From a virus (Duplodnaviria > Heunggongvirae > Uroviricota > Caudoviricetes), in IMG/VR virus record IMGVR_UViG_2531839664_000015, positions 1 to 16,592 of that record: a DNA stretch of 16,592 nucleotides. One strand, 5' to 3'. The stretch's first letter is position 1. The number at the start of each line of letters is the position of its first letter. The notes under the pieces are model-generated. The model had not been told where the DNA came from and ran no database searches. It saw only the letters and a program-made list of their open reading frames with translations. Below, in pieces: positions 303 through 1,472 of the stretch. The position numbers were made by a program, and so were the translations under genes.

Positions 303-1016
303 TCAATAATCAAGCCCTTGCCTGGATACATATCTGTCTGGCGGGAAGCCATAATAGCGGTGAAATACAGAAATAAAGTAGGACCGGCTTGAATAACCAC
401 ATTTTTCTGCTACAGCCTGTCCATATCCATACCGGGAACATAACATATTTACAGCAACACGCATCCGCTCTTCCAGCAACAAGCGACTGAACATGCCCCC
501 TTCATTTTTCAGTTTTGTCTTTAACAAACTCTCACTCATATGCAACTGTAGAGCAATCGCACCAAGCGTCCAGCTTGCTGATATATCTGTCTGAATTATC
601 GCCCTGACTTTGGCACTTATGCTGGATAAACATCCACTTAAAAACAATGACATCCGTTCATCTGTTTCAAACAGAGACAGGCAGGCCATCATAAGAAACA
701 TATCCGTGACCTCTCCGGAAAATCCCTGGCTGGTAATTAAAGCCGCAGCCAACGCAGGATTGTTGGGTTCCAGCAACAGGTAAAGCGGAATGTCAGTCAG
801 ACGAGTCCTCGTCAGCTTATGCTGACTTTCCAGATATTGACTTACGACGGATTCGCTTATATCGACAATTTTAACTTTGCCATAATGCATAAGGAAAAGC
901 TCCCTGATGCATTTGGTGGCCAGAACGACTGAGCCTGGCTTAAGTGACAACGTATCCTTTTCAAGAAAAATATTAATTGGGGAGCAAACCATGATAACTG
1001 AACAGACAACAGCCAT
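303..1016 (-). CDS. AraC/XylS-family transcriptional regulator (prophage cargo; AppY/PatE/Psr-like class)
   Basis: 237-aa ORF with ATG start; C-terminal double helix-turn-helix typical of AraC family (IALQLHMSESLLKTKLKNEG ... VAEKCGYSSRSYFISVFHRYYGFPP). N-terminal region resembles prophage AraC-like regulators such as AppY (recalled). Confidence 0.8.
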   Translation of the reverse strand: MAVVCSVIMVCSPINIFLEKDTLSLKPGSVVLATKCIRELFLMHYGKVKIVDISESVVSQYLESQHKLTRTRLTDIPLYLLLEPNNPALAAALITSQGFSGEVTDMFLMMACLSLFETDERMSLFLSGCLSSISAKVRAIIQTDISASWTLGAIALQLHMSESLLKTKLKNEGGMFSRLLLEERMRVAVNMLCSRYGYGQAVAEKCGYSSRSYFISVFHRYYGFPPDRYVSRQGLDY

Positions 1017-1151
1017 TATAATTTTACTTTCATTAGCAATTGGTTAGCTCAATTATAGCCCCAAAAGGTAAATTATCATCAACACATAAGCAAAGGACTG
1101 ACAGGTGCCGCCCCCCCCACCAGCCGCCCATTTACCACAAATAAAAAGCCT

Positions 1152-1349
1152 TCAGGACTGAATGCGTCTGTAACAACCGCACTGATAGTCTGCCAGACCC
1201 GCCATAACCAGCTGGGTCAGTATTAACTGGCAGCGTTCGCGTGAAAGGTAAGTATTCTGCGCAATCTCCCCGACTGTCGCCGGGTCGGTAACGCTTAATT
1301 CATTAAACACCACTCTGGCGGTTTCTGTCATATCCTGCTGTTTTAGCAT
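1152..1349 (-). CDS. small hypothetical protein (65 aa)
   Basis: Taken from the internal Met (MLKQQDM...) of the 106-aa track ORF, which has a GGGA-type ribosome-binding site. The long start at 1472 directly abuts the U-tract of a terminator hairpin with no RBS. No recognisable family. Confidence 0.4.
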   Translation of the reverse strand: MLKQQDMTETARVVFNELSVTDPATVGEIAQNTYLSRERCQLILTQLVMAGLADYQCGCYRRIQS

Positions 1350-1472
1350 GTCTTTTTCCCTTTTCCGGTTAACGTGACATACCAATAACTCTTGTCGAAA
1401 AAGCCAGCAAGTTGAAAGACCGGTATTAGCAACCACCAGCGCGTTTAACGCCCCGTGCCGTTTTTCAGTCAT

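Follow-up and report, generated by a model that had tools for sequence, protein, structure and literature searches.

PsrA and PsrB are prophage-borne regulators under which GadE and YhiF are expressed more strongly, with repression of LEE type III secretion as the consequence (PMC10877973 and PMC8565820, reviews citing Tree 2011 and Yang 2015). PsrB, an AraC/XylS activator, binds the promoters of hdeA and gadE and improves survival in acid, also during passage through the mouse stomach (PMC10877973), and both GAD- and HdeAB-dependent acid resistance are raised by it (reviewed in PMC10877973 and PMC8565820). According to these reviews the two phenotypes differ, in that deletion of psrA leads to increased type III secretion, whereas acid survival is raised by PsrB and not by PsrA. 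The published identity between the two proteins is 90% (PMC8565820). The psrB gene (z2104) is located in O-island 57 (PMC8565820, PMC10877973), and ECs1087 was named psrA by the Tree laboratory (PMC13502914). In addition, HnrS, a prophage sRNA of 66 nt, is reported to raise psrA expression, and the Sakai prophages Sp10 and Sp12 are reported to carry identical copies of it (PMC13502914). Among the regulators through which prophages reshape the central circuits of acid resistance and virulence in enterohaemorrhagic E. coli is PsrB, as was established between 2011 and 2015.

A second group of described systems concerns homopolymeric tracts that render promoters phase-variable, such as those of porA and opc in Neisseria and of fim in Bordetella. 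These tracts are situated between the -35 and the -10, or between an activator site and the -10, they are usually longer than the tract discussed below, and they switch at high frequency within a strain.

The present analysis concerns a gene of the first kind with a tract upstream of it, in a stretch of Caudoviricetes DNA of 16,592 nucleotides (IMG/VR record IMGVR_UViG_2531839664_000015, positions 1 to 16,592; hereafter the window). A sequence-only reading had placed an AraC-like regulator of 237 aa between the terminator of the Q slot and the tRNA genes, and this arrangement was confirmed, with the ORF at 303-1016, the terminator at about 1472-1502 and the tRNAs at 199-274 and 22-98. The interpretation that we favour, with a probability of roughly 90%, is that psrB is an accessory gene of the late operon that would be expressed from its own promoter as well as by Q-dependent read-through, and that the tract upstream of it is a slippage-prone, near-neutral site. 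The gene and its host-rewiring role are already known, since the activation of gadE and hdeA and the indirect repression of type III secretion by PsrB and PsrA have been published. The additions made here are modest, and comprise the boundaries of the psr cassette, a methyltransferase as the alternative in the same slot, a corrected small ORF and the derived, polymorphic nature of the tract.

Organization of the locus

On the late strand the order is Q, the tR' terminator, a gene of 65 aa, a weak terminator hairpin, the psrB promoter, psrB, tRNA-Ile2, tRNA-Arg and then the lysis genes. The features are the following:

1574..2140, minus strand: Q-like late antiterminator (DUF1133; Pfam DUF1133 E 3.7e-105, Phage_antitermQ; phrog_753, 'anti-termination protein Q-like')
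about 1472..1502, minus strand: intrinsic terminator 3' of Q, tR'-like (GC-rich stem-loop and U7)
1152..1349, minus strand: small ORF of 65 aa, probable winged-helix-like DNA-binding protein (RefSeq annotation; phrog_331, E 6.8e-37; SfV orf47; phiP27 L23)
1139..1165, minus strand: terminator-like hairpin and T-run over the stop codon of the small ORF (locus comparison)
1111..1118, no strand assigned: C8 tract, G8 on the coding strand (sequence)
1080..1138, minus strand: conserved segment just 3' of the small ORF; imperfect inverted repeat whose apex is the G-tract (shared by psr-type and methyltransferase-type phages, SfV among them)
1052..1079, minus strand: predicted sigma-70 promoter of psrB, with -35 ATGATA (1079-1074), a 16-nt spacer and -10 TATAAT (1057-1052) (consensus scan, 10/12 matches)
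303..1016, minus strand: psrB coding sequence, AraC/XylS-family regulator of 237 aa (ORF, Pfam, identity to Sakai)
199..274, minus strand: tRNA gene with CAU anticodon, ileZ (lysidine-modified tRNA-Ile2 in the RefSeq and Sakai annotation, Met according to ARAGORN)
22..98, minus strand: tRNA-Arg (UCU), argO (tRNA gene search)

The tR'-like terminator is strong (-37.6 kcal/mol, z -3.2), and the terminator scan placed a weak terminator-like site at the 3' end of psrB (324-311). An Rfam search of 303-1472 returned no known RNA family. The tRNA genes of the window are limited to ileZ and argO, between which Sp4, Sp12 and Stx2 phages carry argN in addition. Furthermore, a promoter-like site (TTGATT-17-TATTAT, 285-313, minus strand) extends over the end of psrB, with ileZ about 10 nt further downstream; in the lysogen, the prophage tRNAs could be transcribed from it.

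Identity of the regulator

The psrB ORF comprises 714 nt and encodes 237 aa. In Pfam, the protein is matched by HTH_AraC in two stretches (E 2.9e-13, 50 bits; cut-off 26.6) and by HTH_18 at residues 155-230 (37.8 bits; cut-off 33.6). Both Pfam and the sequence matches to the PDB thus identify the C-terminal DNA-binding domain of the AraC/XylS family with its two helix-turn-helix motifs, and the closest solved DNA-binding domains are those of GadX (E 2e-18) and also Rns. The best NCBIfam match is YdeO, over the full length, which at 106 bits lies well below the equivalog cut-off of 348 bits, and GadX is next. Homology over the full length was found with ECs_0287 (presumed PatE; 37% identity), YdeO (31%) and AppY (29%). 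Residues 1-130 align from residue 1 with the N-terminal parts of these three proteins, as is expected of an AraC/XylS companion domain, and no ligand for this domain was inferred from the alignments. Since all three alignments begin at the first residues, they support the start that gives 237 aa.

The gene was at first expected in Sakai Sp10 or Sp12, but neither contains an AraC gene and psrB was found in Sp11. There, the ORF at ECs_2191, when extended to the first ATG, encodes the same protein (100% aa identity, 238/238 including the stop), and positions 1-2200 of the window align with Sp11 with 3 mismatches and no gaps. Sp11 also carries nleG2-3, nleG6-2, nleG5-2 and pchB, and because these three nleG genes constitute the effector content of O-island 57, Sp11 can be equated with that island. 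In addition, the protein is 90.7% identical (215/237 aa) to ECs1087 of Sakai Sp4, which is psrA, in agreement with the published 90%. The identity to the Sp11 ORF, the gene content of the O-island and the match with the published value together indicate that 303-1016 on the minus strand encodes PsrB, the prophage-encoded secretion regulator B of Shiga-toxigenic and enterohaemorrhagic E. coli, an assignment made by sequence comparison.

The expectation of a prophage regulator of the AppY, PatE, PsrA or PsrB kind was therefore borne out by the homology search, as the protein appears to be PsrB itself, and the opposite outcome, clustering with non-prophage housekeeping AraC regulators, was not seen, the protein being found in a prophage context. 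The carriage of PsrA and PsrB by prophages alone, together with effector loci and a Pch-family regulator, is also reflected here, with a lambdoid context and with nleG genes and pchB in Sp11; a PerC/Pch regulator gene is present in the same prophage in the O157 strain F3113 and in O121 RM8352. Positions 1-2200 of the window have 100% matches in prophages of O121, O103 and O157 strains, and are near-complete in 531 of 5426 complete E. coli genomes.

The small gene and the variable psr slot

The sequence-only reading had regarded the small ORF as cargo carried with the regulator, a view that did not hold. A reading of 106 aa (1152-1472, minus strand) exists as a mechanical ORF, but the RefSeq gene is the inner ORF of 65 aa at 1152-1349, and the longer version was rejected, as the 41-codon extension contains an in-frame TAG and TAA in the Sakai Sp4 copy and the family is typically 63-65 aa long. 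Moreover, the same gene precedes a methyltransferase in phiP27, SfV and many Stx2 phages. In Enterobacteriaceae the family has 301 homologues, and the 120 listed are 77-97% identical to the small protein of the window. Family members are mostly of 63-65 aa, with a few of up to 74, and derive from Escherichia, Salmonella, Klebsiella, Citrobacter, Buttiauxella and Scandinavium. The Pfam matches are all sub-threshold and all to winged-helix families, within residues 7-56, the best being TrmB with 17.6 bits against a cut-off of 25.6. The AlphaFold2 model (pLDDT 81.8) has four helices and no predicted beta wing, and its best PDB match is the PapI-family protein PefI (TM 0.66, rmsd 1.7 Å, probability 0.99, E 0.22); with a fold match that is suggestive only, the protein is probably of a winged-helix-like DNA-binding type.

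The context of this gene varies on its downstream side. The module query matched 57 phage records, of which only phiSTEC1575-Stx2k has the small ORF together with psr; in nearly all of the other records listed, the match is confined to the small-ORF segment. Behind the small ORF, phiP27, SfV and Stx2_EH2201 encode a DNA methyltransferase of about 350 aa, after which come tRNAs or lysis genes. The psr-type and methyltransferase-type loci are homologous from the terminator across the small ORF to about 70 nt past its stop, and this homology ends near window position 1078, at the predicted -35 of psrB. In Sakai Sp10, the Q gene is 93% identical and the same terminator abuts ileZ directly, so that window positions 289-1473 are missing, while Sakai Sp4 shares window positions 1-1484 at 92.6% and has another Q type and an extra CAAX-protease gene upstream. 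The gap in Sp10, the methyltransferase in phiP27, SfV and Stx2 phages and the end of homology near 1078 all indicate that psr and its promoter fill a variable slot that follows a small, conserved late gene, with the methyltransferase as an alternative occupant. As is typical of a moron, psrB sits in the interval from Q/tR' to the lysis genes, and related phages lack it or have another gene instead. The small ORF, judging from its distribution, is found widely as the gene at the head of the lambdoid late operon and is not cargo specific to psr.

In the loci with the alternative occupant, the small gene (window 1080-1349) is followed by the methyltransferase at the psr position at L039 1365-2771, L040 1328-2735 and L042 1367-2763 (phiP27, SfV and Stx2 phages), and the adjacency of a small protein of PapI/PefI-like fold and a methyltransferase is a noteworthy pairing.

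In Sakai Sp4, a one-base deletion shifts the frame of the small ORF to give 79 aa (L003 17343-17582) beside a functional psrA, and the small ORF is also frameshifted in 10 of 21 psrA-type IMG/VR contigs, which suggests that psr function is independent of it. The small ORF is thus often decaying in psrA loci and is intact in all psrB-type loci seen. At the stop codon of the small ORF, a 7-bp stem (GCCTTCA/TGAAGGC) with variable loops, followed by T6ATTT, is present in psrA-type and methyltransferase-type loci, whereas in the window and all psrB-type loci the stem has a C-to-A mismatch and the T-run is only T5; the terminator scan made no call at 1139-1165 of the window.

Predicted expression of psrB

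A consensus scan of the coding strand upstream of psrB found a single strong promoter candidate with a perfect -10, and this predicted -10 is identical across psrA, psrB and the psr gene of phiSTEC1575. The predicted -35 of psrB (ATGATA) is poor and its ribosome-binding site is weak. In the 94 nt from the tract to the ATG, psrA and psrB are identical at 93 positions, and their coding sequences are 94.1% identical. Of the 714 nt of coding sequence, 42 differ between psrA (L003 17677-18390) and psrB (303-1016), with 22 aa-changing differences that fall mostly in the N-terminal domain. This suggests that the sensing domain has been diversifying while the control region stayed conserved.

In the lysogen, psrB would be transcribed from its own predicted promoter, as tR' stops upstream transcription from the late promoter. 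Upon induction, Q-modified RNA polymerase would pass tR' and the weak hairpin and proceed into the small ORF, psrB, the tRNAs and the lysis genes. PsrB would then activate gadE and hdeA and lower type III secretion, a step that is taken from the literature. The possibility that HnrS is a short leader between Q and the terminator was tried and rejected, as no stretch of more than 14 nt is common to the Q-to-tRNA intervals of these two prophages, Sp10 and Sp12, and the 66-mers common to Sp10 and Sp12 have no occurrence in the window.

Origin and length variation of the C-tract

The run of eight C at 1111-1118 had been noted as lying about 95 bp upstream of the start, and this is exactly so in the sequence, position 1111 being 95 bp from the first base of the psrB start codon (1016). 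It is situated 31 nt upstream of the predicted -35 (1079-1074) and outside the spacer between the -35 and the -10. One homopolymer of eight bases per 16.6 kb is statistically unremarkable, and its interest lies in its position and its polymorphism.

On the coding strand, GGGTGTTAG is found at the tract position in every psrA locus, in the psr locus of phiSTEC1575, and in phiP27 and Stx2_EH2201, and SfV carries GGGTGTTGG. From this distribution the G-tract appears to be derived in the psrB allele, with GGGTGTTAG as the ancestral state. Among the IMG/VR contigs, the homopolymer (C7 to C9) occurs only with PsrB-type proteins. One contig (IMGVR_UViG_2541047427_000018) encodes a PsrB-like protein, with 232/237 residues identical to PsrB and 220/237 to PsrA, and keeps both the ancestral GGGTGTTAG and a frameshifted small ORF; its allele is either an intermediate between psrA and psrB or a recombinant.

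To count tract lengths, complete E. coli genomes were queried with tracts of varied length between identical 40-nt flanks, and exact matches were scored after subtraction, in each search, of one extra record in the 99%-or-better band that is apparently a partial match. C6 was found in 3 genomes, C7 in 28, C8 in about 287 and C9 in 13, and the exact-flank query for C10 returned 0 complete E. coli genomes; some of these calls could be long-read homopolymer errors. The sequence-only reading had suggested a slipped-strand tract that could modulate expression, and an invariant tract with no promoter nearby would have spoken against it. Instead, lengths from C6 to C9 were seen and a predicted perfect TATAAT lies upstream of psrB. 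The strain 86-24 has C9 in three separate assemblies and C7 is common to O145:H28 strains of two laboratories (USA and Japan), which argues that the lengths are real and fixed within lineages. Furthermore, C7, C8 and C9 alleles all occur within O157:H7, so the tract is far more mutable than its flanks. C6 to C9 are thus best seen as alleles of a slippage hot spot that have been fixed in different lineages.

The tract does not show the anatomy of an expression switch, being located on the upstream side of the -35, apparently fixed within strains, and missing in psrA, in the psr gene of phiSTEC1575 and in one psrB-like allele. Known slipped-strand promoters combine length variation between isolates with a tract in the spacer or between activator and core promoter, and only the former was found here. 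RNAalifold predicts a hairpin for 1080-1138, but the changes within it are one-sided (G-C/G-U) and no compensatory pairs were found. Altering the tract length changes only the size of the apical loop in RNA folds, and a conserved, structured RNA around the tract was consequently judged unconvincing. Most likely, therefore, the tract would have little or no effect on psrB expression, and in comparative terms it represents a derived site of polymorphic length (C6 to C9) and not a conserved regulatory element.

Alternative explanations

The small winged-helix-like ORF and psrB might be considered a dedicated two-gene module, in which the small protein controls psrB or acts together with PsrB. In all psr loci examined, the two genes lie side by side in the same orientation, the small protein has a predicted fold of DNA-binding type, and the inverted repeat between the two genes could be an operator. 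Against this, psr is present in only 1 of the 57 phage records hit by the module query (nearly all of those listed being hit through the small-ORF segment), the methyltransferase takes its place in phiP27, SfV and Stx2_EH2201, and a terminator-like hairpin separates the small ORF from psr. The frameshifted small ORFs of Sakai Sp4, beside a functional psrA, and of the 10 psrA-type contigs likewise disagree with a joint function, and such a module is quite improbable.

Two further alternatives concern the tract. On the one hand, the G-tract might be a slipped-strand rheostat, in which the gain or loss of a G shifts the spacing or helical phase between operator and promoter, or the spacing of the half-sites of the inverted repeat, and thereby sets heritable PsrB levels in each lineage. 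The tract is indeed the sole variable position in a stretch of 88 nt that is otherwise identical in about 330 genomes, its C7, C8 and C9 forms coexist inside a single serotype (O157:H7), it is located at the apex of a conserved imperfect inverted repeat, and a promoter-like site follows 31 nt downstream. Yet it lies outside the predicted -35/-10 spacer, no factor is known to bind there, and its length alters only a loop in RNA folds. It is also absent from psrA, which is reported to be expressed and functional, as well as from the phiSTEC1575 psr gene and the psrB-like IMG/VR allele, and the agreement of the 86-24 assemblies (n=3) and the lengths shared within lineages suggest low-frequency change and not switching. 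A rheostat is accordingly unlikely to a considerable degree, and its slow form, in which one-base changes in the spacing or phasing of operator half-sites set the PsrB level of a lineage, is very unlikely, so that expression control by tract length has overall only a slight chance of being correct. If tract length did tune psrB, it would provide a simple genetic marker for strain differences in acid tolerance, against which the anatomy argues, and a slow rheostat could be one reason for O157, O145, O121 and O103 lineages to differ heritably in acid resistance and type III secretion. On the other hand, the length differences might be sequencing or assembly errors in a tract that is truly invariant, since many complete genomes come from long-read platforms prone to homopolymer errors and all C6 calls stem from the O145 series of one laboratory. 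The repeated C9 of strain 86-24, the C7 of O145:H28 from both the USA and Japan, and the presence of C7 and C9 also in IMG/VR draft genomes make this explanation very unlikely.

Other elements of the window

Outside the late region, Rfam identified a sok antitoxin RNA at 4568-4742 (minus strand, 113 bits), which a Hok/Gef gene adjoins in the RefSeq annotation of near-identical prophages, and DicF at 11976-12027 (plus strand, 75 bits), upstream of a dicB-like gene. Two ORFs at 15308-16526 (plus strand) lie near the position of an IS600 transposase of the IS3 family (with programmed frameshift) in the closely related O121 RM8352 prophage, where the IS600 site is at the early end, between the exonuclease and xis/int. 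An ungapped comparison of the window with the RM8352 prophage gave 983 mismatches, probably due to an indel.

Comparison with known systems

The psrB tract resembles the phase-variable tracts of porA, opc and fim in that it is a G/C run close to a promoter and varies in length from isolate to isolate. It differs from them in its location 31 nt upstream of the -35, in its length of 6-9 bases, in its stability in re-sequenced strains and in being dispensable in paralogues.

The small ORF of the window belongs to the same family as SfV orf47, phiP27 L23 and phrog_331, with a DNA identity of 82-94%, and SfV orf47 and phiP27 L23 share its position as the first gene after Q and the terminator. In these two phages, unlike in the window, the next gene is a DNA methyltransferase and not psr.

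As for the regulator, PatE, YdeO, AppY and GadX are AraC/XylS-type acid-resistance regulators of E. coli like PsrB, and ECs_0287, YdeO and AppY are homologous to it from the first residues (MxxVCSV...). PatE and AppY are, moreover, prophage-borne, as is PsrB. All four are distant paralogues rather than orthologues and occupy other genomic positions, with appY at the end of DLP12 and ydeO on the chromosome, whereas psrB is part of a lambdoid late operon.

PsrA (z1789 in the reviews; ECs1087 in Sakai Sp4) is much closer, and its gene has the same position between the small ORF and ileZ. The psrA locus differs from that of psrB in carrying GGGTGTTAG in place of the G-tract, in its intact terminator hairpin, in its small ORF, which is frameshifted in Sakai, and in its upstream genes, which include another Q type and the CAAX protease.

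The closest described counterpart is psrB of Sakai Sp11 (ECs2191; z2104 of the EDL933 O-island 57), which the Sakai GenBank annotation starts 42 codons later, to give 195 aa. The two sequences differ at 3 of 2200 nt (1284, 1814 and 2193), one of which results in an E to D change in the small ORF. The protein and the C8 tract are identical to those of the window, and the neighbours are also the same, namely the DUF1133 Q gene, the 65-aa ORF, ileZ and argO and, further on, a TerB-like gene and pchB.
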